A stretch of 61,447 nt of DNA, the filler included, from Sphacelaria rigidula (taxonomy: Eukaryota), in assembly GCA_964200075.2 (NCBI GenBank). It is 8 parts of 8 records of this genome, joined end to end, with 100 filler letters (N's around TTAATTAATTAA, not from the genome) between each part and the next. Parts side by side here need not be neighbours in the genome. Positions count along the whole stretch, not along the records: positions 23,083 to 30,675 come from CAXNAA020014186.1; 7 more parts are not named here. The stretch is one strand, 5' to 3'. Below the pieces are notes generated by a model. It was not told the DNA's origin and ran no database searches. It worked only from the letters and a program-made list of their open reading frames with translations. The position numbers and the translations under genes were made by a program. Of this stretch, positions 7,595 through 54,059 are shown piece after piece. Each line of letters opens with the position of its first letter. Position 1 is the first letter of the stretch.

Positions 7595-7694
7595 NNNNNN
7601 NNNNNNNNNNNNNNNNNNNNNNNNNNNNNNNNNNNNNNTTAATTAATTAANNNNNNNNNNNNNNNNNNNNNNNNNNNNNNNNNNNNNNNNNNNN
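7595..7694. other. Artificial contig linker N44-TTAATTAATTAA-N44
   Basis: Identical 100-bp linkers at 7595, 15289, 22983, 30676, 38369, 46062 and 53755. The 12-mer carries stops in all six frames. Confidence 0.98.
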
Positions 7695-15120: not shown

Positions 15121-15648
15121 TCCTCCCAACCTCGGAATGGGTGGTACACAGCGTCGTTATGGTTGTACTGTCCAGGCCGTGCGTACACGTGCGACGGGGG
15201 GGGGGGGGGGGCGGGTTGTGGTGTGGGGGTCTTGTGGGGTTGGAAGTGGGGGAATGGAGCGTTTTGGGGAGGGGGGAGGGGGGGGGGGNNNNNNNNNNNN
15301 NNNNNNNNNNNNNNNNNNNNNNNNNNNNNNNNTTAATTAATTAANNNNNNNNNNNNNNNNNNNNNNNNNNNNNNNNNNNNNNNNNNNNTTTTTTGATCTT
15401 TGCCCCCCACTCTTTGTCGGGAGGGCGCCCGGGAGGGGGGGGGGGGGGGGGTTCAGAGTGCGACAAAAAATAAATTAAAAAAAAATCAAATTGGGTAGTG
15501 ATATGCATCTCTCTTTATCGTGAATGAGTTATGCCATTCCCCCTACAACACAAATGTTTCACGCTCGACCTTGTGAGTGACGACTCCCGCCCCTCCTCTC
15601 CTCCCACCATTCTCTCCCCGAATTCTCGATGCCGTGCCATCCTCCAAG

Positions 15649-22627: not shown

Positions 22628-23730
22628 GTGCGAGTGATAGCAGAGCGTCCGTTATTGATTAGACCAAGTCATGTGAACACTGACTTCAGAGAAAGTAATT
22701 TCACAGATCGCAATTTCGGCTTCTTCCTACTTTTCTCTTTCTGGACTATACTTTTAAGCCATCCCCATTCTCAGGATGGTCCCGTAGTCTCAACGGCTCA
22801 GCACATCCCTCACCCGGTGGGCGTTTCACGTGTTGATATCGCGGATTGGATCATGACCATCAGCACTCCCTCCTGCATGTGGCACAGCAATAGAAAGCAG
22901 AAGGCATTTAGTTGCAGAATGGGAGCTATACAAGGAGGAAGGAGACGTGCTAGAGGGGGAATGCGGGACGTGAACGAAGGTGNNNNNNNNNNNNNNNNNN
23001 NNNNNNNNNNNNNNNNNNNNNNNNNNTTAATTAATTAANNNNNNNNNNNNNNNNNNNNNNNNNNNNNNNNNNNNNNNNNNNNTCATTCACTGATTGACCG
23101 CTTTTCACTCTCAATCGTATCATCTACTCTCAATCTCACGAAAACACTGTTGGGTGTCGTTATGTCATGCAATGCTTGTCTTGATACACCTGGTATGCTT
23201 GTACGTATGGCTGTCCCTCAAGAGGTCGAAAGATGGAACCTTGCGGTTCTTAATTTTTTTGGTGGGTGATATTCGGGGCCCTGAGTCTCGCCCGTAGTCG
23301 GACCCTGTGTCCATTTCTACTTGACCTCGCGCGTCGAGTTGGAAAGCCGGGTGACCCCATGAAATCCGAATGGTCACCTGCGGCACCGCATCTTCTGAGG
23401 TTAGCCATATGTATTATCTTTCTTCATCAGTTATCCCTGTTTTGCTTATATCGCTTTTTTTAAGTTTTCCAATTTTCAAATTGGTTGTCTCAGGCTATTC
23501 CAGATTCGGCATGGGTTTCTGTGACAGCAAACTGTCTCGTTTTTTCAGAACACGGGAAAAAAAACAAGCAGAACTTGAAAAAAAACAAGCAGAACTTTTC
23601 GAGAACTTTTCGGAAAACTGCCCAAAACGTGACTCCCATTATATGGAGTACAGTGTACTACACTGAACACAACACAATTCTGCAGTGTTTTTTAGAACCT
23701 GAACACGGGCTGTATACAGTATGCATCAGA

Positions 23731-24019
23731 TTCTCTTGTTGCAAAATTAATAGTGTCCAGCTGCTGCTGCTGTACTACTACGGAAGCACACGCCCTCGAG
23801 GTGCCACCCCACGTTTACTGTCATTGCGAACATAAGAAGTCAAGAACACGAACTGCAGCAGTCGTGGCCACCACTTCTCTTGTTGCAAAATTAATACTGT
23901 CCAGCTGTTGCTGCTGTACTACTACGGAAGCACATGCCCTCGAGGTGCCCACCCCACGTTTACCGTCATCGCGAGCATAACAAGACAAGAACACGAACTG
24001 CAGCGATCGTGGCCGCCAC
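23731..24019. repeat. 144-bp tandem duplication bracketed by ~50-bp direct repeats
   Basis: Units start ttctcttgttgcaaaattaata at 23731 and 23875. The sequence aaaactgcccaaaacgtgac…attatatggagtacag occurs at ~23603-23652 and ~24191-24240. Confidence 0.85.
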
Positions 24020-26557: not shown

Positions 26558-27447
26558 CTTCTTTCTACTGGGAGGCAGTAGTGGAGCAGTAGATAGTGAT
26601 CGATGGTGTGAGCTTTGTTCGTGTTCAGCGAACAAAGCCAGTATCATCCATCCCTGTAATATACAGGGTCACATTCGTACCCGACCAACTCTGAGCAGGC
26701 CTGCAGTCTTGGCCACCGAAACACAAGAAAGCAAATAGCTAGACTCGACAACGGGTCTGAAGCGGCATGACATCAGGCTGATATACTTCTTCATGACACT
26801 AACCCACCCAGACGAACCTTTACTACAGCTGCGAGGATTTATCCTCAAAGCAGCGAAAACTAAGGTTTTTCTTTACTCGTCAAGTCATGAGCGGCTGATA
26901 AAGCATACCTAAAGGAACACTCCCGTACCTAACGCTCCCGTACCAACAATCCTGTACCCACTCCCACACCTCAAAAGAAGGGAAGCATAGACTGCTTCGA
27001 GGAGCAGACAAACTGCTCCAAAACGCGGAAGCACAAACTGCTTCGGCGTGCTAGCGATCAACAAAGAAGCACAAATTGCTTCGGCGTCCTAGCAAAATTT
27101 TATGGGGGGAAAACAGGGAGGTACAACAGGGAGCAGAGCTCTAACCTGGGGGAAGCCAAAGGTACAACAGGGAGCAGAGCTTCAACCTGGGGGAATCCAA
27201 AGGTGCTGAAAACTGCAAGGTCGAAAATCTGAAAATCGGTGATCCAACGAGATTGTGCGCCAGTTGAAAGGAACACTACAGCTCCAGTAGTCGTAGGTGG
27301 TGGTCGTCTCAGGAATTCTTGATCGTCGTCCGATGTAGGTCGCGCTGTTGTGGTGTCGTAGAAGAGGATCCTGGTGGAGAAGGGAGGGCAGACAATGCTT
27401 ACGGAAAAAATGGGGGTGGGGCAACAGTCGCGACAAAGAAGCGTGGT

Positions 27448-30400
27448 TCAAAGCGGGGCGTGGACGTCGTGGATGTGGTCGATGTTGCGCTGGAGACCGC
27501 GGCGAAGTCCTTTGGACTTGAGGCGCTGGAGACACCAGAATCCGCGTGGTGTAGATGGGCTGGTGGTGTATAGTGCTGGCCGAAGCTTGAGCTGTATGGG
27601 TCCAGGGTCATCGATGAAGCGCACGGTGTATGTGTCGGCTGAAACCAGCTTAGCGGAGAGGATCTGACCCAACCACCAGAGGTAACCGCTGCCTTGGAAC
27701 CAAAGGTAGCGGCCCTTGGGCAGGAGTCGCTGGCTCGCGAAGAACTTCGTCTTACAAGTCTTGGAGGGTACAAGTTTGTAACCATCGGCGACGAAGCGTA
27801 GTCCCTGATTTCGGTGAAGTTCGCGGGATGCTGCGCCACGGCGCATGTTGCGGTATTTCTTGTTGTGAAGCAAGATGCTGATGTTGGGATTGCGTCCAGT
27901 AAAGGAGGGTTGCACGGCGGTGCAATTGCAGGTCGGATTCGCGTTCCCAAGACGCTCTCCGAAGACCGTGCCAGTGTGTCTTATACATGACAGCGATCTT
28001 GCCTCCTCGACCACGGATTATCTGGTCGCCGGAAATGGAGGATACAGCCAACCAAAGGGGCTGTTCCGTCACGTCGTCGTTTGTAACGTGGTAGGGCGGG
28101 GACTTGGTCGAGTAGCTGTTGAGAACATACTGTGTGAGTCCGGCAGGCAGGTACTTTGGCATGTCACTTGTATCATGCGGGTTCGTGCAGGGTTTGTATC
28201 TGTGCACGGAGACGCGGAGCTTGGTGTCTTTACCCTGGAAGTCGCGAGGCAGGTCGAGATAGAGCAATTTGGCACCAACGGGTGTTTCATCCGGTGATGA
28301 TGACGATGGTTCGACTGTCAGGATCTTGAATGGTCCTGTTCAATTGAGGGGCAATTCTGTCTTCAGAATTGTTTCGTTGGCTGCCTTGCTGATGCCTTGG
28401 CGGATGGTCGACAAACTGTTGTAGATCCAAACCCAATCACCAACTTTCCAGTTAGGGCGTTTGTGCATGAGGTTGTAGAGAGCAGTGTTAGATCTCTCTA
28501 GGCGCGAGGCATTGATAGCGTGTTGTTCGCGCATGAGGGTAGACGCTTTGCGTTGTCGTGTATGCGCTAGCTCGTGTTAGGATATCTGATCCTGATCCAA
28601 TCCTTGGTGGCTGTCAAACGTGTGTCGCTCGAACACGGTGATAGGCAGCCGAGGGTAGCGTCCAAGATGGAGTTTGTTCGGAGAAAGGCCTGTGGCGGCA
28701 TTAACCGAGTTGTTGTAAGACAACATGATGTGCGAGAAATGTAGATCCCAGTCATTTTGGCGGTCATTGACAACCATAGAGAGCATCTGGGCCATGGTGC
28801 GATTAACTCTTTCTGTACCACCGTTACCGTTCGGGTGGTTGGCGCTCGTGGCAATTTTGCGGATGCCGAGAAGCTTGTAAAGCTCATCAGAGAGGTCTGA
28901 GCAAAATTGCTGACCATTGTCTGAAAGTAGTCGCTTTGGGCAACCGTAGTGCTTGATGTAATCGTGGACCAATATGTCGGCCGTTCCGGCGGCAGTGACA
29001 TCTGCGGCGGTTACCGCGTACATGGACGCGTGGCGGCTGAAGCGGTCAGTGAAGAGTAAGATGTAGGTGTCGCGCGACCTGTGGTCGGGAGAGGGCCAAA
29101 GTAGTCAAAGGACACAAGGTGGCTGGGCTCGTCGGGGAGCCCCATAGAGATGACGGGCCAGCGTACTGTCTGTCGTGAAGGTTTTCGGGCTTGGCATTTA
29201 AAGCTTCGCCGAATCCAGAAGCGGGTTGAACTTTCCATCCCAACCCACCAGTAGAAGCGTTCCAAAAACGCGAGGGTGCGGGTGACGCCAAGGTGACATG
29301 ACCAGTCTGTGTGGTAGCCTTTCATGACCCAGGGGCGCATTAATATGTAGTCGTGCGTTGGTTCGTCATTGAGTAGTCGTGCGGTGCGTCCCGTAGTTGA
29401 GGCGGCAATTGCGCCTGTCAAAGGCGTGGGCCGACGTACGAGTAGTTGCACACCTTCATCCGTAGTAAAAATGGTGCCTTACGCACGAGCTCGTATACGT
29501 CAGAAATAACTGGTGGTAGCAGTATGCCAACCGGGGCCAGAAGTGTCGACGGAAAAGGGACTGGACAGTCGAGTTATAAATACCGGATGGCTGCGCGACG
29601 TAGCGGGTCTGCGTTTTGTTCGCGAGCCCAATCGCGGTGGGAGTAGCTGGCGAGAAACTCGCGTAGTTGACCTTGCGCTGGCGAGCCGTCCAAACATGGT
29701 AGGGCAGGCGGCGGGGGAATAGGCGACGGGGCAGAAATGCGGATGTCAATATCTGTCCCGGGAGCAGGAGACGAGTCGTCAGTTCCGTGCTCGGGGGCAG
29801 GAGATGTTTGCGGCGCCGTTATGGGTGGCGGGGTTGTATCAATGCGCGGCGAAGATTATCCGCTGCTCGTGGCGCACGGTGCAGAAGTTTTTGCGGAGCT
29901 TTGCGTTTTGGTCCGTGGAACTTGTGCTGGGTGGCTCATAGAGGTTGCAGGTGTTGTCAGTGGCGGCGGGGCACTCGGTGTGGTGCGGGCAGCAGATCGG
30001 GAGCGCGTGTTGTCGGAGATAAGGTGGGTGACTGGAGGTGTCTTCGTGAAGAGTTTCGCGCAAGGACCGGAAGTGCAAAAATTAACAAAATCGGAGGTAG
30101 TGGGCTGTAACCCACCCAAGACGGCGTCATATGGTAAAGGGCGAGGTCCTCCCATATGCATACCGGTCTTCGGGCAGTGGAGGTGGAGGGCGTAAATGGG
30201 CGTTGAAAAACGTCTAATCGCGTAAATTTCAGGTTCAGCGGGTTCCGTTAACCAGCAGGCCGGGCTGGAATCTGCGGCCGTAGGCGGCAGAGGTAGGCGG
30301 GAAAGAAGATCATCGTTCCCGTTGGTTTTGCCGGGACGGTGCTTAATGGTATACTGGTATGCTGTTAGAATCTCCAACCATCGTTGTACACGAGGGTTGT

Positions 30401-30675
30401 GTTCGCCAACTTTAGCAAGTTGTTCAAGTGCTCCGTGATCCGTATGGATCTCGAAGGGCACGTGAAACAGATATTGTCAAAGGCGCTTAATGGCCCAAGT
30501 GATTACTCCGCCTTCCAGTTCTAGCGGGCTCCAATTGACCTCATTTGTCAGGGTAACGCGGCTAATATAAAGGATGGGTCGGACGGAGCCATCAACCTGA
30601 GGTTGATTCAAACCTCTTCCAAATCCATTTGTGCTGGCGTCAGTATGGACTTGGAAAAGGCGGACACTTTCTACG
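27448..30675 (-). mobile_element. Decayed Ty3/Gypsy LTR retrotransposon pol (RNase H, integrase, GPF motif, chromodomain, Tudor-like domain)
   Basis: RNase H FQVHTDAS…FEIHTDHGAL…RVQRW; integrase zinc region HLGVTRT…FYWW…KCQARK; core SFDYFGPLP, LLSDNGQQF, GTERVNRT; WTGPFKIL. Stops and frameshifts are present and the element is cut by the contig end. Confidence 0.93.
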
Positions 30676-32049
30676 NNNNNNNNNNNNNNNNNNNNNNNNN
30701 NNNNNNNNNNNNNNNNNNNTTAATTAATTAANNNNNNNNNNNNNNNNNNNNNNNNNNNNNNNNNNNNNNNNNNNNTTTTGTTTTCGTTATTTTTTGTGTT
30801 TTTTGGGGGGGGGGGGGGGGGTATCGTAGAAAGTGTCAGACTCTGAGTTCCGTAACGCGTTGTTATCGCGTTTGCGATTGTCATTAGTTGGGATTGTTCC
30901 TGCTTCGCCACATGGCGTTGACCCATCTCAATCAGTTACCGGCTTGCCTTGGTCTCTACCCTGGGCCATCACTACGCTCTGCTCCTATGGCTGCGCCCCG
31001 GCTATGCTGAGTAAAAGAGGCTTGTAGATATAACATGACGTTATGAAACACGTGAGTTCCTAATCAAGAGTCTGCACATGGGTGGACCTACTATGTGATT
31101 GTTCTTGTTGGATAGCTAAAGGTCGTCCGTTGTGCCCACGTGGAAGCTTGGGTTTGCTGAACCCAACGGTATCTCCTGGTACTCGTACTGAGAGGCCTCA
31201 GCCAGTGCATTAGCTATACCACTCATTGTGATGGTTTACCGTCGTTCATGTATTTCGTGTTTTCGTACCCGGTTCACCCTGTGCGCATTCAAGATGCAGT
31301 TATGCAGGACCAAGTCTAGTGAACCTACCGTAGGAACAAGCTTGACTCTTACAACACAGACGCCACTCACATGGGGTCAGATGAACGGTGCCACATGTGG
31401 GTTTCAGAACAGTCGTTTCATCACAGCACAAAACGCCTTTTTTTTTAAAGCATGTGGACATGTTGGGCGGTGCGCCGGTCTCGCAGCTTCAAGTATTCCG
31501 AGTGATGGTCTCACGGGCACAGCGGCAACGATCGGAGGAAGACACCCGATTCTTGTACAGTCTGCGCCGTGCGCTTCAAGCGTTTTTGTTCCAATACGGG
31601 ATCCGGTCGATGTCCATCTCCGTCTTTCGATTTTGATCGATTGATTGTCGTACTTTAACTGACCCCCCAGGAGTCCAGCCGTGGTCTCATGATAGACGTA
31701 CCCAACAGAACAAAACTGAAAAAGGCTCTGAGGAAAAAAAAGGGGGGGGGGGCAGAAAAAAAACAGGAACAGGAAAAAGAAGAAAAAAGAAAGAGGGATC
31801 GAACAAAACGACATAGCAGACTAAGTCGTGACAAAATAGTAATAAAAAGTCAACACAACAAGCAAAGCATAGAAAGAAATGGCCGACCTTAAACAAGAAG
31901 AAGGGAAACAAGAGGAAAGTACAAAGCAAATCAAATAAAAAACGATGAAACGATGGGAAAAAAAAGGGAAAAAGCTTCAGGAGTTGAGGGCAGCAGAGTA
32001 GATACAGACACCCACCAGTGGGTACCGCAGGGCCACCGACTACGGACGT

Positions 32050-34190
32050 TATCAACAATCGATATGAGAGGACAGGATTTTCTTCGAGGCTATGCCGGCG
32101 TCGTCCGCATAAAGCATTGGCCACACCGCGCGTCGCACCTTTTCCAGTGGTGTCTCTTCCACGGATTCACCACCGACACCTTGTGGCGCATCATCTGGAA
32201 AGACCAAGTCTGAGACGATGAGTGGGTCCGCCGCAAACCGCTGGACGATCCTTCCACCAAGCCTGCTCCGAAGATGTTGAACAACAGCGGAGACGAAACG
32301 CAACCTTGTCCGAGTCCCTGGCAGACGTCGAACCACGCTGACAGTTCGCCACTATCTAGCTGTACCCGAGCTCGCATGCCGTCGCGAAACATACGGATGA
32401 TCGTGATCATTCGCGACGGAACTCCGAACCGAGCAAGCACTTCCCACAGAAGGGTGCGGTCTACAGAATCGTAGGCTTTCTGCAGATCGATGAAGCGCAT
32501 ATTTATTGGGATGTTGCTCACCCGTCCCAGCTCCTGGAGTCGGCGTACTACGAAGATCATGTCTATGGTCGATCTTTGGCGCCTAAATCCAAACTGCTCT
32601 TCCGGGAAGACATCTGTTTCCTTACAAAAATCACCGAGCCTGTTGGCTACGACTTTGAGGAGAACTTTAGCAGTATATGCCACAAGTGAAATGCCTCTGT
32701 AGTTACTACACTGCGTCCTATCTTGTTTTTTGTGTGGCACTTTGATGGTGACATCTTTCCATTCTTGCGGCACGTCGCCAGATGTCCAAACCGCAGAGAT
32801 GATGTCGTGGAAGTGGTACAAATATCCGACGCCTCCCCGTTAAGTCCAAGTTTTAGGATTTCAGCAGGAATACCATCCGAACCGGTTGCTTTGCCGTTCG
32901 ACATAGCTCTCAGGGCCTCGACAGTTTCACTTGGGCTTGGTGGGTCTCCCAGTGACAACGCTATTGAGCAATAAGTTGTGCGAATTGAGGTTTAACTCCG
33001 AGATGAGGTTCAAGTCTGAAACAGTGCTTTCCCCACACTTTCAGCGATGGTGCCCAATGACGTTTTTGTCGCCCTAATGCCCCTCAATCGCGTAGATACT
33101 TTTTCGAGGGGGGTAATAGCAGGGAAAATGGCGGTTTCGGTCAGCGCTGTAAGCTCACAGAGTCAGCGAATTGCGCTGAAACGTATCTACGCGATTGCGG
33201 GGCATTAGACCGACAAAACCGTCATTGGGCATCATCGCTGAAAGTGTGGGGAAAGCACTGTTTTCGGCTTGATCCTCATCTCGGAGTTAAACCTCAATTC
33301 GCACAATTTGTTGTTATTGGTCGTTGAGCAATCTTCTCGATGATGGTGCGGTCAATAGTTGCCGACATGGTGTTCAGCAATGTAGAAAAGCGACGTTCTC
33401 ATCTCCCACTGATCAAACCTCTGTCCCGCAGAAAATTGCCGTCCTCATCTCGTACGTACTGTTCACTCTCAATTGGTCATCCAGACAGTCTCCACCCTCC
33501 GTTGAGATGTCTGTACCATTCTCTCATGTCCCCCGCTCGAATATGCTACTCTAGTTCTCTAGCATACACATCCATATATTTGCCAACCCCAACTTAGATC
33601 ATTTGTTTTTTTTGCATGCTGTTCGCAATGTGCGCCATGCGAGTTTATTTCGAGATGACCCTAGTCTAACCGTTGAACTCTCCCTTTCTCTCTTCATCCA
33701 CGCGAGTTCGAATTCCGCTCTGATTTCAGCATCCTCGAACCACGCCGGTATGCGTGGTTTTCGGGTCAGACGGGGTACCAACTTTCCAGCGGCACTCAAG
33801 AGTACGTCGGCAAAGTTCGTAGGCAGTGAACTAACTGTATCACTAGGTGTACTCTGTTCGAGCTCGCTGATGATGAGCTGGGTGAGCTGCTAGCCGCAAA
33901 TTGCAGATAATTGCAGATGCGGCAACGATCTGATATTGTCTCCGCATGATGCCGTTCGGGCTGGTGTGTCGGCAAGATGTTCACCCATGTTCGTTGGAGT
34001 TTTATGACCTCCGGCACACAAGCCACCTGTATGCATCGTTGAATCTTCCGGGTCTTCGCACCGACCAACAAGGGGGCTACACTCTTCTTGTCGTTGGGTT
34101 TCGGCCTTTTTTGGTGGGATGTAATTTTACCGAAAATAACTATGGTTGTGACTGGCGTAGCTTGTGCTGAGACGGCGGTACGGGCACCAC
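32050..34190 (-). mobile_element. Decayed RTE-like LINE (end of endonuclease/linker plus reverse transcriptase)
   Basis: KATGSDGIPAEILK, VPQEWKD, NYRGISLV, EEQFGFR, FIDLQKAYDSVDR, QGCVSSPLLFNIF and MLYADD. Frameshifted and interrupted by a MITE. Confidence 0.92.
32967..33315. mobile_element. Foldback MITE with ~130-bp TIRs and (T)ATTG target-site duplication, inserted in the LINE
   Basis: Left end agcaataagttgtgcgaattgaggtttaactccgagatgagg…; right end …cctcatctcggagttaaacctcaattcgcacaatttgttgtt. ATTG lies at 32963-66 and 33316-19. Removing the element restores KIAQRPIALSLGDPP. Confidence 0.9.
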
Positions 34191-35948: not shown

Positions 35949-36784
35949 TCGGTTGAAGAGAAGAGACAGGGTGTCTCGGGTCCGACAGGCCACTAAAACC
36001 GCCTGTGATAGTGGCTTCCGTGAGGTCGGAGAGGCGCAGGATCAAAAACAAGGAAAACCGAAACACTGAACGAGAGAAAAGGGTAGTCGAGACTCTCACA
36101 GCTAGCAAGGAGCAAATGCAAGGAGCATCTCAGCATAAAATGGACGACAGTGGAGGAAAAGACTACAATCGTAGTCGCTGTTCTCCAGAAACGTCAAGCC
36201 AAACGAGGACGGAAGAGTGAAGGTGCAAAAGATTCGCAACTCACAACTCAATATGATGGACACACACACGTCCTCAAGATATCACCAGGTCACCAATTGC
36301 AGGTGGGTTATGTAGAACCTCAATGAGGGCTCTTCACAAATACCATACGGCGGGCTATGACAGTGGGTCGAGCCAACTGTCGAAACGGAACAAAAAACAA
36401 ATACGCTCGTGCCAGTGCGTTTGTAGCACCTTGTCTGGGGACACATATGTGTTAAAAAAAGGACATCACAGTTCCAGAACTAGTTCAACCCGACCTACAA
36501 TATGCGGTGGCTCCAGAATGGCATGGAAACGCGCCCATGGCCAGGTACACACACATACACACACATATCCACATATGCGCCACGGATACACACGTATGCG
36601 CATACATACCTCCAAATACACATACAGGCATACACGCACATAGATATGCGCAAACACTCACACACATATACACGGGGCAATAAATAAACAACGGGGGGTT
36701 GCGGCCGTGGCATCGAAGCAGCTAGGCGACACAACGGGGAAAATAGGACAGCACGCATCAAGGCTTGCCTTCCCTCCATAAATT

Positions 36785-38329
36785 GTCGATATTCCGGAGG
36801 GTGGCGTCGTCTATGTAGCCGTCGTCATGACGCTGGAGACACCAGGACCCGCGGCGAGCGGCCGGTGCTAAATGCGCTTCAGGGGGCCGGGGTCATCGAG
36901 GAAGCGGATGTAGTAGGCGGTGTCGGAGTCAGGTGCTGGTAAGTGAATCTTGCCCAGCCACCAGAGAGAGCCCTGCGCCTTGTTCCAGAAGTACACGCCT
37001 TTCGGTAGACGTTTCCTGCGAAAAAAAGCAAGAATTGCGCACGCGAACCAAGGCTATAGCCAGTCATGACGAATCGGGCCGAATGCTCCCGGGCAAGCTC
37101 TCGTGCCGCCGCTCCTGTCCGCATAGACCTGTATCTTCGTTTCAACGGACGGTGTTGCGCAACATCGCCTACCCAGTACAACAGAACTTGTCTACGGAAA
37201 TGCCGCAAGTCGACATTCCGTTCCCACGTGATCCGCATCAATCCTTTTCAATGCGTCTGGCACGTCATTGCTAGTTTACCACCACGACCGCGGACCACTT
37301 GGTGTCCGCTGATATGATCGACTACCACGCGTTCCACAGGGGCTTGAGCGTCTTCAGCTGTGACATGAAAAATGGCGACTTGGTGGCATGCCTCGTCAAT
37401 ACGTACTGGCTGAGTCCTGACGACAGTTGTTTGGGCATATCAGTGGTGTCGTGCGGGGCGGTGCAGGGTTCATGGCGCCGGACAGACACGCGGTGTTTCT
37501 GTGGAGGCTCAGCTTCATCCGTGGGGAAATCAAGGTACAAAAGATTGTCCCCGATGGGTCGATCATCCGGTGCTGTAGCACTTGGCCCAACACTCAAACC
37601 GTTCCACGGCCCAGTCCAATTGAGGGACAGCTTGGCCTGCAACACCTTATACGGCGAATCCTTACTCGGGCTGGCTCTTTGGCGAATCATCTGTACATCG
37701 TTGTACATCCACGCCCATGCACCCGCCTTCCACACTGGGCGCTTGTGCATCACCGCACCCAACGTGGCATCGGCACTAACCGCTTTTGCCAAATTGATCT
37801 GGTTTTGCTCGCGCACCAAATCATACGCCAACGGTAGACAATAACTCAAAACGTCCTGATACTCCTTGATATCCCGGTTCAAACTCTGATGATCGCCCAC
37901 GGTACGGGGTTTGAGTATGGTCAACGGCACCCGCGGCATGCGACCAATATGAATTTCATTTAGTGCAAGGCCGGTGGCGCTGTGGACCGAGTTGTTGTAG
38001 TTCAGTGAGAATAAGGGCACACATAGATTCTAATATGTTTTGCCGTCCGTTTGTGACGGCTGACAGCATTTGCGCCATCGTACGGTTGACACGTTCCGTT
38101 CCACCGTTCGTTTGGGGGTGGCACGGGTTTACAAAGATGCGATAGAAACCCAGTGGTGTACTGACCGCAGCAGAAATTTGCCGGAAAAATGTTTTCATGA
38201 CAAAGTGACAACTGAGTCGACCAGCCATCAACAAAATGTACTTGTTGCTACTCTTCATGAGCGGCAACGGTCCAAATTAGTCCCAAGATATAACTTCATC
38301 GGGCCCATTGGGGAGCGGCATGGACATGG
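36785..38329 (-). mobile_element. Second, divergent decayed Ty3/Gypsy integrase region with chromodomain and Tudor-like domain
   Basis: HPQTNGGTERVNRTMAQMLS, YNNSVHSATG, KLSLNWTGPW, ISGHQVVRGRGGKLAMTCQTH*KGLMRITWERNVDL and LPKGVYFWNKAQGSLWWLGKI…YYIRFLDDPGP. Confidence 0.9.
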
Positions 38330-38468
38330 AACAGTGTTTTCGTGAGATTGAGAGTAGATGATACGATANNNNNNNNNNNNNNNNNNNNNNNNNNNNNNNN
38401 NNNNNNNNNNNNTTAATTAATTAANNNNNNNNNNNNNNNNNNNNNNNNNNNNNNNNNNNNNNNNNNNN

Positions 38469-44800: not shown

Positions 44801-46943
44801 GTCTGTGGGAGGTTTTTCATATCTCCATCTTTTCCACCACTACTTGCGGGTGTAGGATCGACCTCGCCTGGTCATGGCGATTCAGGTTCCAGCGATCGAA
44901 CGTCTAGTCATGGATCTGTTGCCGGATTGCGTGTTGGAATATCGTCTAACCACTGAAGGAGTGAACAGCGATGCTAACTCAGGGACATTAATCGGGTGTT
45001 GTACCGTGTCCTGTACACAACTGACAGCGCCGAACCGCTGTTAGAGCTCCTGCTTAAGGGCCGTGTTGCAGCAAACAATGGGAAACGTACCATTTCTGTC
45101 CGGTTCTCCCCATTTTGCATCCTTTTGGTGCCCGTTTCCAATATTCTTTTCAGGAAAGTTGCTCCACTACCTTTCCAAGGCCACGTAAGTTTCCATTTCC
45201 AATTCGGAACATAAATGTATCTGAGAATTAACATTGGTGCTTCTTCCATGCAGTTGAGCATACGCGCAGCCAGCATTCTGAACACACCATGCTGCTTTGC
45301 TCAAGATATGTATGGTTTGTTGTTCTCGAGGATATTCCTGAAATTGTTTTTCCACCGAAAATTATTGCCCGGATACAATTATTCAAGGCAAAAATACAGG
45401 TGAGCCATATTCTCTGCAACAACATCGGATGGACAATATTTGCAATATGCCTGACAAGTATGTTCCTGTTGTCTCAGATGGAATTCGAATGGTGCAACCC
45501 AGTAAATTACGCCCTCCCTACCGCGACACTCCCGCAATCTCACACGACGTGCCAAGGCTCGCTGAGGGCTCCAAGACGCGTTGTCATGGAGCAAATAAAT
45601 GGCAGAGAACCGGCCGAACACCTTGTAGGCAGGTCTTACACAAGAGGAAATGCACGTTACCATCGTGATCTTCCAACACGTGTACTTCCTCTGTCCCATA
45701 AGTTAGCCTGGTCATGAGGTATACATCATATCTTCGTGACGAAGGTGTTTACCATGCCCCAGGTCATTGATTTAGATTACATTATGAGATCCTCGCGAAC
45801 AAGAAAAAATCCGAGAAAAAAAGTGTCAACTGTCGGCAGCAAAACGTGGGATACAGGTTACAGCTCAGCATGCAGTGTCCGAAAAGGCGTATTCCTTTTC
45901 GATGGAAGAAGGAAGCCTAAAATACATGGAAATCTTTCGTTTTCGGCCGTTCTGTTTGAATTTCCGGCTTTCCCGGCTTATTTTTCGAGGGGGGGTGTAC
46001 TCATGATCATGCATGCCATAGTCATAAGACCATTGACCTCGCATCCCTACAAAGCCGGGACNNNNNNNNNNNNNNNNNNNNNNNNNNNNNNNNNNNNNNN
46101 NNNNNTTAATTAATTAANNNNNNNNNNNNNNNNNNNNNNNNNNNNNNNNNNNNNNNNNNNNCGTGCTCCGTCCCGGCATTGTAGGGATGCGAGGTCAATG
46201 GTTTTATGACTATGGCATCCATGATCATGAGTACATCCCCCCCCCTCCCCCCCCTTCCCCCCCCACCAGAAAAAAACCCCTGGGTGATGAGATTTCGTGT
46301 GCCCCGCAAGTCATCGCTGGACGTAGTGTCCACCACCATCTACGATAAGTATTGGCATGGTACGCAGGCGTTACCGACCAGAGCTCTGCACTGCTGTAGG
46401 GTTGGTCAACAAGTTGGAGATACGGACCATACGGTAGGAGCTGACCCTCCTATACCTTCGGTGGACTGACGTTCTATTGTCGAAGAACCGTCGTGCTGAG
46501 AGGACACCACTGTTTTTGTCCGGATCACAAAGCAGTGCCTTGCAGTAGAGTCAGTGCACCTAGGGCCCAAGCTCATGACAGTAGGGCGGCGCGTGCACTG
46601 CGCGAAGTGGACAGGGGGTTTTAGTGGATTCGATCCCCACGCTTGCCTTGAGCAAAGTTTCCGAACGCTCGAAGCGCCTACCCCACATGGCTGCCACGAG
46701 GCGGTCTAGCCGAGCCTCCGTGAAATCGGCACACGGATCCGCTTGCGGGGTAAGTGCTGGGTGAGGTTTCCACCTTTTTTTCAAGGAAAAAATGAAGTAG
46801 ATTTGGTGCGATACATACAGGCAGATTCGTTCTTGTACCGTATATGTAAAAGCAAAATGGATACGATACGAGCTGGGCCAGCCAACCCTTTTTCAGGTTT
46901 TCTTTTCGGGTTGGAGGCGATGCGCGGGTTAATTTCGAGGGTT

Positions 46944-47420: not shown

Positions 47421-48095
47421 GGCCAGATGTTATGGCACACAGATTTTTGGCCCACAGATTGTTCACTTTTGGGACGTTTGACCCACTTTTTGACCCCCAA
47501 ACAGGGAAAATCGTCAACACACTTCTTCGACACTTTGCAGCGCCCCACAGAGAGGAGCCTAGCCCACTTTTCATATTCGCTTGGCTCCACGGTTTCGAGA
47601 GTGATCGCTGAACAATAATCCGTGTGCAATAAAATCTACGGCGATTTTCACAGATTATTGGGCAAACCGCCGCTTGTTGGCAAGCATAGATGATTGCACA
47701 CGAATTATTGTTCAGCAGCCAATCTCGAAACCTCGCAGCCAAGCGAAGCTGAGAAATAGTCTAGGCTCCTCTCTGTGGGTGATACAAAGTGTCCGAGACG
47801 TGTGTTGGCGATTTTCCCTGTTTGGGGGTCAATAATTGGGTCAAAGGCCCCACAAGTGAACAATCCGAGGCCGAAAATCTGTGTGCCGAAACATCCAGCC
47901 TTGGGGACATTTTGCATCACTCCACGGAGAGGAGCCTAGCCCACGTTTCAGAGTCGCTTGGCTCCAAGGTTTCGAAGGTGGCCCCTGAACAATAATCCGT
48001 GTGCAATAAAATNNNNNNNNNNGATCTCCACAGATTATTGGGCAAACTGCCGTATGTTGGCAAGCACAGATTATTGCACACGAATTATTGTTCAG
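47421..48095. repeat. Second ~480-bp palindrome plus partial direct repeat
   Basis: Arms ~47421-47637 and ~47689-47900 (tgacccccaaacagggaaaatcg / cgattttccctgtttgggggtca). 47920-48095 repeats ~47546-47715. Confidence 0.85.
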
Positions 48096-48431
48096 CGCAC
48101 CATGTCGTCCGAGATGTTTTTTTGCAGTGCAAGTGGCAAAGGATGCCGTGTAGCCCGGGGTGTATCGGGTGTGCCGTGTTGTTAACCTCTCCAACGATGG
48201 GGCACCGTGTATGCTGTTGCCTTTTCACTCCGTTATCATGTGTGACACGATATATTACAGCAATACAACCGTACGCTGAGTAACACGCACTCGGTGAATA
48301 ACAACCCCTCGATGACGGACGTTCGGCTACTTGTGACACTGAGGACCATGGTGACATCCACAGTCACAACTGAGTCGGGGTACGCTCTTTACCACCCCCT
48401 AAATTACACCCTCGGGTGAAAAAAAATAGGC

Positions 48432-53419: not shown

Positions 53420-54059
53420 GTAAGGATGCACTCGTCGCAATGGCCACCCCGCCATACTCTTGGTTCTTGTACAACAACAGCTGCCGCGTTCCGGTGGTTT
53501 GATTTAAACACTGTCAAGCCAATGACAACTTTTGCGCGGAGGTCGCGGGTTCGAGTCCCCGTCTACATATCCACGGTTGTTGTTTGTAGCAAAATCGGGT
53601 TTCGGTCGTTGAAGATTTGACGAGACGAGGCAGCAAAAAAAAAATGTCGACGAGAGTTGACGCGGTGCGGAAAGAGGGCGGACCGAATCCGCGATGGCAC
53701 GAAATTATGGCGGGTGCCGGGGGAGAGGAATAGGCGGGACGATCGGGGGAGACCNNNNNNNNNNNNNNNNNNNNNNNNNNNNNNNNNNNNNNNNNNNNTT
53801 AATTAATTAANNNNNNNNNNNNNNNNNNNNNNNNNNNNNNNNNNNNNNNNNNNNAAGGCGTCCGCATCAGATGCCCAGTACGCATGTACCGCGCAGATAT
53901 CGGAACGCTTTTTTTAATGTGAAGACAACAACAACCGGACAGAACACTTCGAGGCACGTCGACAGGAAAAGAGTGTGCTGAATCAGTGACCGGGGTCGAA
54001 GTGCAAGGAAGGCGCCAGGGAAGAGATGGGTCTATTCCTTGATACTGCGGACTCGTCCT

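Follow-up and report, generated by a model that had tools for sequence, protein, structure and literature searches.

Reader domains fused to integrases are the clearest natural cases in which retroelements choose a landing site by its chromatin state. In a eukaryote-wide survey (bioRxiv 10.1101/2021.11.30.470311), the domains fused to transposable elements (TEs) are mostly Chromo and PHD. The closest described systems come from the stramenopile alga Ectocarpus. According to the main text of a 2025 study (PMC12477816), four Gypsy lineages are found there, and three of them have putative C-terminal chromodomains; these chromodomain-carrying lineages are related to neither chromoviruses nor Chronos. 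The fourth, Gypsy-10_Ec32, has a Tudor domain at its C-terminus; the same text presents it as the first TE reported to carry one and notes a homologue in Tribonema minus. Here we analyse a 61,447-nucleotide stretch of Sphacelaria rigidula DNA (assembly GCA_964200075.2), referred to as the window, which holds the minus-strand remains of a Gypsy element whose integrase has both a chromo-like and a Tudor-like part.

We consider it probable (roughly 0.6) that this region is the 3' pol end of a dead, 5'-cut algal Ty3/gypsy (Metaviridae-type) long terminal repeat (LTR) retrotransposon, and that the integrase of its relatives has, in addition to GPY/F, a conserved module of about 190 residues, predicted to consist of a chromo-like fold, an arginine-rich helix and a Tudor-like barrel, that tethers it to chromatin. 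The order of these parts, their continuity in a single open reading frame (ORF) in relatives, and the conservation and predicted folds of the module come entirely from computation. The chromo-like, helix and Tudor-like architecture is real and widespread. By analogy, the tandem probably steers the insertion of new copies.

A Tudor-integrase fusion was already known, and the chromo and Tudor tandem is apparently new: we did not find it in the literature searched, which covered PMC12477816 by its main text. A sequence-only reading of the window had known of no chromo and Tudor integrase. In the literature searched, that statement stands for the tandem; the Tudor-integrase fusion as such is published for Gypsy-10_Ec32 in the main text of PMC12477816.

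Intact relatives and predicted folds

The Tudor-like part of the window copy, used as a query, matched P0001 (E=6.2e-48, 70% identity), which was the sole match at E<=0.01 among 126 candidates. This protein of 237 residues has the chromo-like and Tudor-like parts in a single ORF, in the same order, and is 70-81% identical to the window. An exhaustive HMMER search with P0001 matched 681 proteins at E<=1e-3, of which 291 reach E<=1e-10 and 22 reach E<=1e-30. Among the 150 matches listed of these 681, short fragments predominate, and at least 26 relatives align in one HMMER stretch from the chromo tryptophan (residue 64 or earlier) to the Tudor phenylalanine (residue 182 or later). Of the six matches in a search of long proteins, five cover 98-100% of the module and also have Pfam domains of integrase, and P0162, the sixth, covers 20%. 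In P0160 (1670 residues), one ORF encodes reverse transcriptase (RVT_1, residues 313-471), ribonuclease H (RNase H, 535-669), integrase (Integrase_H2C2, 1023-1080, and rve, 1097-1196) and then the chromo-like and Tudor-like parts, with the module at the extreme C-terminus. The module is conserved across about 30-55% identity.

The sequence-only reading had described a Gypsy integrase C-terminus with both parts in the window. This is true of the intact relatives, where they share a single ORF, but the window copy itself is split by a frame break. The peptide strings quoted in that reading are all present on the minus strand where it had placed them. It had put the chromo-like part at about 28050-27925 and the Tudor-like part at about 27725-27590, and we found them at 28054-27896 and 27723-27523.

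Parts of the module also occur in proteins of other kinds. P0113 (612 residues) and P0114 (828 residues) are homologous end to end (29% identity, E=5e-59). Both combine an N-terminal coiled coil with an Arg/Ser-rich stretch and a C-terminal Tudor-like part (matching the window at 27475-27813), and neither has a chromo-like part or an integrase. P0059 (626 residues) has an unrelated N-terminus followed by the chromo-like and Tudor-like parts. Its N-terminus has no significant BLASTP match to P0113, P0114 or P0160; the N-terminal region of P0114 matched itself alone in a word-based search, and the N-terminus of P0113 had no usable match in the ESM Atlas. These three proteins may be domesticated genes, derivatives that arose by deletion, or chimeras of gene models. 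Two further proteins are probable chimeras of gene models: P0157, in which a hydrophobic, membrane-protein-like N-terminus is joined to integrase and the module, and P0024, in which TIMP and WSC domains are joined to the linker and the Tudor-like part.

An AlphaFold2 model of P0001, built on a 109-row alignment, has a mean predicted local distance difference test score (pLDDT) of 85.7 and a predicted template modelling score (pTM) of 0.76. The first domain is predicted to have a beta-beta-beta-alpha fold (strands 40-50, 56-64 and 71-74, helix 75-90; pLDDT about 90-97), that is, the three-stranded sheet packed by a C-terminal helix that is expected of a chromodomain. Foldseek against the PDB matched this domain to Swi6 (probability 0.97) and to the chromodomains of cpSRP43 (probability 1.0, root-mean-square deviation (rmsd) 2.9 A, 56 columns). 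The predicted linker consists of a helix (101-118), a short strand (128-130) and a second helix (133-141), and the barrel that follows has strands at 152-156, 162-170, 177-182, 188-192 and 209-214. We also modelled the window's own unbroken translation (27451-27873, 62-row alignment), which covers the linker and the Tudor-like part. That model (pLDDT 82.3, pTM 0.73) has the same elements, with linker helices at 5-22 and 37-45 around a strand at 32-34 and barrel strands at 56-60, 66-75, 81-86, 92-96 and 113-118. A five-stranded SH3-like barrel of the Tudor/Agenet kind is present in both models. The assignment of the second domain to such a barrel and of the first to a chromodomain, as proposed in the sequence-only reading, is thus borne out in the models with high confidence.

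The closest structures to the predicted barrel in the PDB are the Tudor domains of PHF1, PHF19 and MTF2 (Foldseek probability 0.99-1.0, rmsd 1.6-2.3 A over 44-47 columns, 18-26% identity, E 0.02-0.07), and these top neighbours read H3K36me3 according to the titles of their PDB entries. The next matches are the Tudor domains of LBR, TDRD3, PHF20 and SGF29, and PWWP domains. Foldseek rows for Spindlin, CHD4/5, Tudor-SN and intasomes were rejected as matches to the whole module, at rmsd 17-21 A. In the ESM Atlas, residues 100-237 of P0001 scored at best 0.82; PTM_DIR17_Tudor, Spin-Ssty and SAWADEE were all below 0.9 and are leads only. A fold search of BFVD was uninformative: nothing passed E<=0.001, and the matches were confined to small phage barrels.

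Support at the level of sequence is weak, yet it points to the same two families, chromodomain and Tudor. A profile searched against the PDB matched seven sequences in all at E<=10, including the Swi6 chromodomain (E=0.0023), the PHF19 Tudor domain (E=0.017-0.021) and the MPP8 chromodomain (E about 0.9). With an alternative profile, the values for Swi6, PHF19 and MPP8 were 0.17, 0.08 and 0.4. Of the 109 aligned relatives, 12 match Pfam Chromo at E<=0.1 (best 1.7e-4), 10 match an SH3 family and 5 match Agenet, the last with a best E of 0.0083. Chromo matches in P0157 and P0158 (E about 0.017) are below the cut-off, and the top single score is 15.5 bits versus 25.1 (P0157).

Conserved residues, proposed targeting and its alternatives

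Which residues are kept bears on what the module might bind. Column counts rest on the aligned relatives of P0001, in P0001 numbering, and the fractions are lower bounds because many rows come from decayed copies. The centre of the chromo cage, as placed by alignment to Swi6, is tryptophan (W64, 61/73). In the barrel, an aromatic opens strand 2 (W163, 60/82, preceded by W162, 68/83), and a phenylalanine closes strand 3 (F182, 57/76) and is followed by two aspartates (D184 in 57/76, the other in 46/75). P186 is conserved as well (65/79). Conservation in the linker helix matches that of the domains, with R107 in 79/102, A111 in 88/100, R113 in 82/99, E114 in 80/98 and R117 in 86/98. W154 (70/96) and Y/F155 (66/93) are also conserved and lie two to three residues ahead of the first Tudor cage position; judging from the alignment, they might substitute for the absent cage aromatics.

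Several results weigh against the explanation that we favour. The first chromo cage position is leucine in 31/53, with aromatics outside the top three residues in that column of the Swi6 alignment, and the third is leucine in 51/71, with phenylalanine in 4; in the window copy the three positions read Leu, Trp, Leu. In an HMMER alignment to PHF19, using what we take to be the cage numbering of that protein, the other two Tudor cage positions are occupied by a small residue (A/G/S) and by a proline (Pro188, 59/74), so that the Tudor part appears to retain about two of the four canonical positions. Neither model had a Foldseek match in the PDB at E<=0.001, and small barrels are promiscuous at similar E values: a designed SH3 and the Spt5 KOW domain matched in the PDB, and phage barrels in BFVD. 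No Pfam chromo or Tudor family was found on the window pieces, P0001, P0002 or P0005, even at E<=1 to 10, and neither PF00385 nor a Tudor-type family reached its curated threshold on the window pieces or P0001. Finally, the tandem is not kept in a single frame in the window copy, which is itself non-functional. The sequence-only reading had called the module a dual chromatin reader. This is more than the alignments suggest: with one of three chromo cage aromatics, the central tryptophan, and about two of four Tudor cage positions, reading of a methyl mark is only putative.

We postulate that the module would tether the complex of integrase and complementary DNA (cDNA) to nucleosomes of a particular chromatin state and so bias insertion, much as has been proposed for the chromodomains of chromoviruses. 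The Tudor barrel would be the main ligand pocket, with its two conserved aromatics and the two adjacent aspartates. A histone tail, DNA or the acidic patch could in addition be contacted by the basic helix together with the cage-poor chromo fold, in a secondary role. A more specific proposal, which we regard as speculative and on balance doubtful, is that the chromo-like part, basic helix and Tudor-like part form a bivalent unit that evolved in stramenopile algae for the chromatin state that replaces H3K9me/H3K27me3 heterochromatin, that it steers Gypsy integration there, and that the unit or its Tudor half has moved between retrotransposon and non-Pol proteins (P0059, P0113 and P0114). Candidate states would be H3K36me3 gene bodies or repeats marked by H4K20me3 or H3K79me2.

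The incomplete cages could also mean that the module is a tether that does not read methylated histones and instead uses the surfaces of the basic helix and the barrel to bind DNA, RNA or a host chromatin protein. Analogous tethers exist: the Ty5 integrase binds Sir4, and the Ty1 integrase binds AC40. Besides the state of both canonical cages, the strong conservation of the arginine-rich helix fits this explanation, as do a PWWP complex with single-stranded DNA and a PHF1-DNA complex among the Foldseek matches and, according to PMC6222470, the frequent binding of nucleic acids by reader domains. We think it somewhat unlikely, however: Tudor domains that read methyl-lysine give the best and most consistent matches, and two cage aromatics are conserved together with the adjacent acidic pair.

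A role in the integrase itself is harder to credit. Both small domains might extend the C-terminal domain of the integrase structurally, serving intasome assembly or multimerisation without a part in target choice. The C-terminal domain of retroviral integrases is itself an SH3-like barrel, the pTM of 0.76 points to a single rigid unit, and intasome chains of human immunodeficiency virus type 1 (HIV-1) and mouse mammary tumour virus (MMTV) are among the weak Foldseek matches (probability 0.14-0.18). Those intasome matches, however, are at rmsd 17-20 A, the module follows the GPY/F domain, which already has this role, and a related Tudor-like part also terminates the non-Pol proteins P0113 and P0114, so that such an extension seems to us improbable. 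As for a chance likeness in a decayed pseudogene, in which the second stretch is no real domain, the missing curated Pfam match and the frame break between the two parts in the window copy are in its favour, but it is already refuted, and barely credible, in view of hundreds of relatives with position-specific conservation, intact single ORFs and confident models.

If the module is a chromatin tether, as we prefer to read it, its ligand is of interest. The background given in the main text of PMC12477816 is that Ectocarpus has negligible 5-methylcytosine (5mC), is without H3K27me3 or H3K9 methylation, and has repeats linked to H3K79me2 and H4K20me3; the sequence-only reading had stated these marks correctly, as absence of DNA methylation and H3K27me3 and repeats with H3K79me2/H4K20me3. 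Its suggestion that the module targets integration to such chromatin is built on Ectocarpus and is tentative for the window family. Because 5mC, H3K27me3 and H3K9 methylation are lacking according to that text, the ligand of a Gypsy "chromodomain" or "Tudor" in Ectocarpus is a testable question. The tandem, kept in hundreds of copies, is a compact, naturally occurring module, about 190 residues long, that could reveal a brown-algal mark specific to repeats or gene bodies. The value of this is moderate, since fusions of a single chromodomain and of a single Tudor domain in such elements were published in 2025.

Likeness to described elements and readers

Like Gypsy-10_Ec32 and the three Ectocarpus chromodomain lineages, as the main text of PMC12477816 describes them, the family in the window has a Ty3/gypsy integrase with a C-terminal royal-family reader fold and belongs to a stramenopile alga. 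Unlike those lineages, which in that text have either a chromodomain or a Tudor domain, the window family has both, in one ORF in its relatives. The family may be the Gypsy-10_Ec32 lineage with an overlooked cage-poor chromodomain, a comparison made by the described Tudor feature alone. It may also be an Ectocarpus "chromodomain" lineage with an overlooked Tudor domain, or a family of another alga. We rejected ECR-1, a centromeric Gypsy element, because it keeps all three cage aromatics (PMC11541908), whereas two of the three are leucine here.

Chromoviruses have a single chromodomain and no Tudor barrel, whereas the window family has both; a presumed role in targeting is common to their chromodomains and the window module. 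Such chromodomains were reportedly taken by Gao et al. in 2008, a study that PMC11541908 and PMC3059260 cite, to bias the target choice of chromoviruses. The position of the chromodomain after GPY/F and the absence of cage aromatics 1 and 3 are features shared with the chromovirus and plant "type II" chromodomains, as set out in PMC3059260, where the Leu-Trp-Leu pattern without the first and third aromatics corresponds to that type.

The barrel shares its strand-2 aromatic, strand-3 phenylalanine and acidic pair with the Tudor domains of PHF1, PHF19 and MTF2 (PDB 4hcz, 4bd3, 6wau and 5xfr). Unlike theirs, it has non-aromatic residues at two of the four cage positions, a strand-helix insert of its own before it and a conserved extra strand after it, and it is accompanied by neither PHD fingers nor a winged helix. 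A related case is HIV-1, whose integrase binds LEDGF/p75, and the PWWP domain of this host protein reads H3K36me3. Integration there is steered by a royal-family reader on marked nucleosomes, as it putatively is here. In HIV-1 the reader is on a host cofactor, whereas in the window family the reader-like folds are within the integrase polypeptide.

The window copy and its surroundings

The window consists of eight 7594-nucleotide pieces joined by linkers of the form N44-TTAATTAATTAA-N44, and pieces that flank one linker are not necessarily genomic neighbours. Two Gypsy copies were found, both truncated by piece ends. The features of these copies are listed in the table. In the copy described above, the element starts inside RNase H at the piece end (30675) and ends at 27448, and by tblastn it matches residues 565-1658 of P0160, a full Pol, with the domains in Pol order. 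The hallmarks of the Ty3/gypsy (Metaviridae) type are present: the order reverse transcriptase, RNase H, integrase, complete in P0160 and from RNase H onwards in the window copy; an HHCC domain and a DDE (rve) core; and GPY/F after the core. RNase H is recognised by PF17917 and PF17919 (each E about 2e-11, on 30477-30674). The zinc-binding domain passes its Pfam cut-off (PF17921, Integrase_H2C2; 44.8 bits against 25.5), and the window rve (PF00665, 30.6 bits) is narrowly below the cut-off of 32.6, with the relative P0161 at 34.7. A direct-repeat scan gave no pair flanking the element, which runs off the piece at 30675, and hence no LTR pair is defined. RNase H and the zinc domain of the integrase are separated by a long, proline-rich spacer of low complexity, at residues about 700-960 in P0160 and about 30213-29475 (minus strand) in the window.

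Table. Coordinates of features in the window.
Feature	Position	Strand	Basis
RNase H domain and proline-rich Pol spacer	29475..30671	-	tblastn, P0160 residues 565-995
Integrase HHCC zinc-binding domain	29176..29340	-	PF17921 E=1.4e-11, residues 47-101 of ORF 29011-29478
Integrase catalytic core (rve)	28832..29071	-	PF00665 E=4.1e-07
In-frame TAA inside integrase	28577..28579	-	
GPY/F-type motif, integrase C-terminal domain, with preceding TGA	28319..28342	-	direct reading; motif proper 28339-28319
Chromodomain-like stretch	27896..28054	-	predicted fold of relative P0001, Swi6 profile match, Foldseek
Frame break separating chromo-like and Tudor-like domains	27860..27873	-	about 27868
Basic (arginine-rich) helix, then short strand and second helix, joining the two domains	27733..27861	-	AlphaFold2 prediction; helix proper 27861-27802
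Tudor/Agenet-like five-stranded barrel	27523..27723	-	AlphaFold2 prediction on the window's own translation, Foldseek
Low-confidence C-terminal tail and Pol stop codon (27450-27448)	27448..27522	-	
Second Gypsy copy, diverged, dead: same integrase, chromo-like, Tudor-like order	36782..38327	-	tblastn, P0160 residues 1090-1659
Linkers between pieces	7595-7694, 15289-15388, 22983-23082, 30676-30775, 38369-38468, 46062-46161, 53755-53854		

The window copy is dead, because it has frame breaks and in-frame TGA and TAA codons. The chromo-like part is in the frame of ORF 27752-28339 and the Tudor-like part in that of ORF 27448-28017, and there are more frame breaks upstream, near 29475 and 29070. 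The TGA, at 28342-28340, stands where relatives including P0160 have a tryptophan ahead of the GPY/F motif; the sequence-only reading had written a tryptophan there, and in the window copy this was mistaken. The family is very highly repeated, and about 1,600 contigs per DNA-type run match 27400-28400 at 90% likeness or more. At 27868, contigs that are one letter longer or shorter than the window number 10, 15, 12 and 2 in runs X1, X2, X4 and X7, and in X1, X2 and X4 they account for about two thirds of the total depth. Runs X7-X10 may be RNA runs, and they were left out as evidence on expression. Within the TGA codon, nearly all aligned contigs have a different letter. Because most contigs differ at both sites, the break at 27868 and the GPY/F TGA are peculiar to the window copy.

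The second Gypsy copy is in the next piece of the window. Its module, found by tblastn with P0001 at 36785-37438 (46% identity), has two frame breaks and one in-frame stop, which falls exactly at the position of the chromo cage tryptophan.

Other repeats in the window are separate from these copies. An ORF at 32090-32839 (minus strand) encodes a reverse transcriptase of the long interspersed nuclear element (LINE) type (PF00078, E=1.6e-20) and is unrelated to the Gypsy element. Short local direct repeats are present at 47529-48107, as units of 107 and 85 nucleotides about 380 nucleotides apart, and at 23731-23954, as 80-nucleotide units 144 nucleotides apart.

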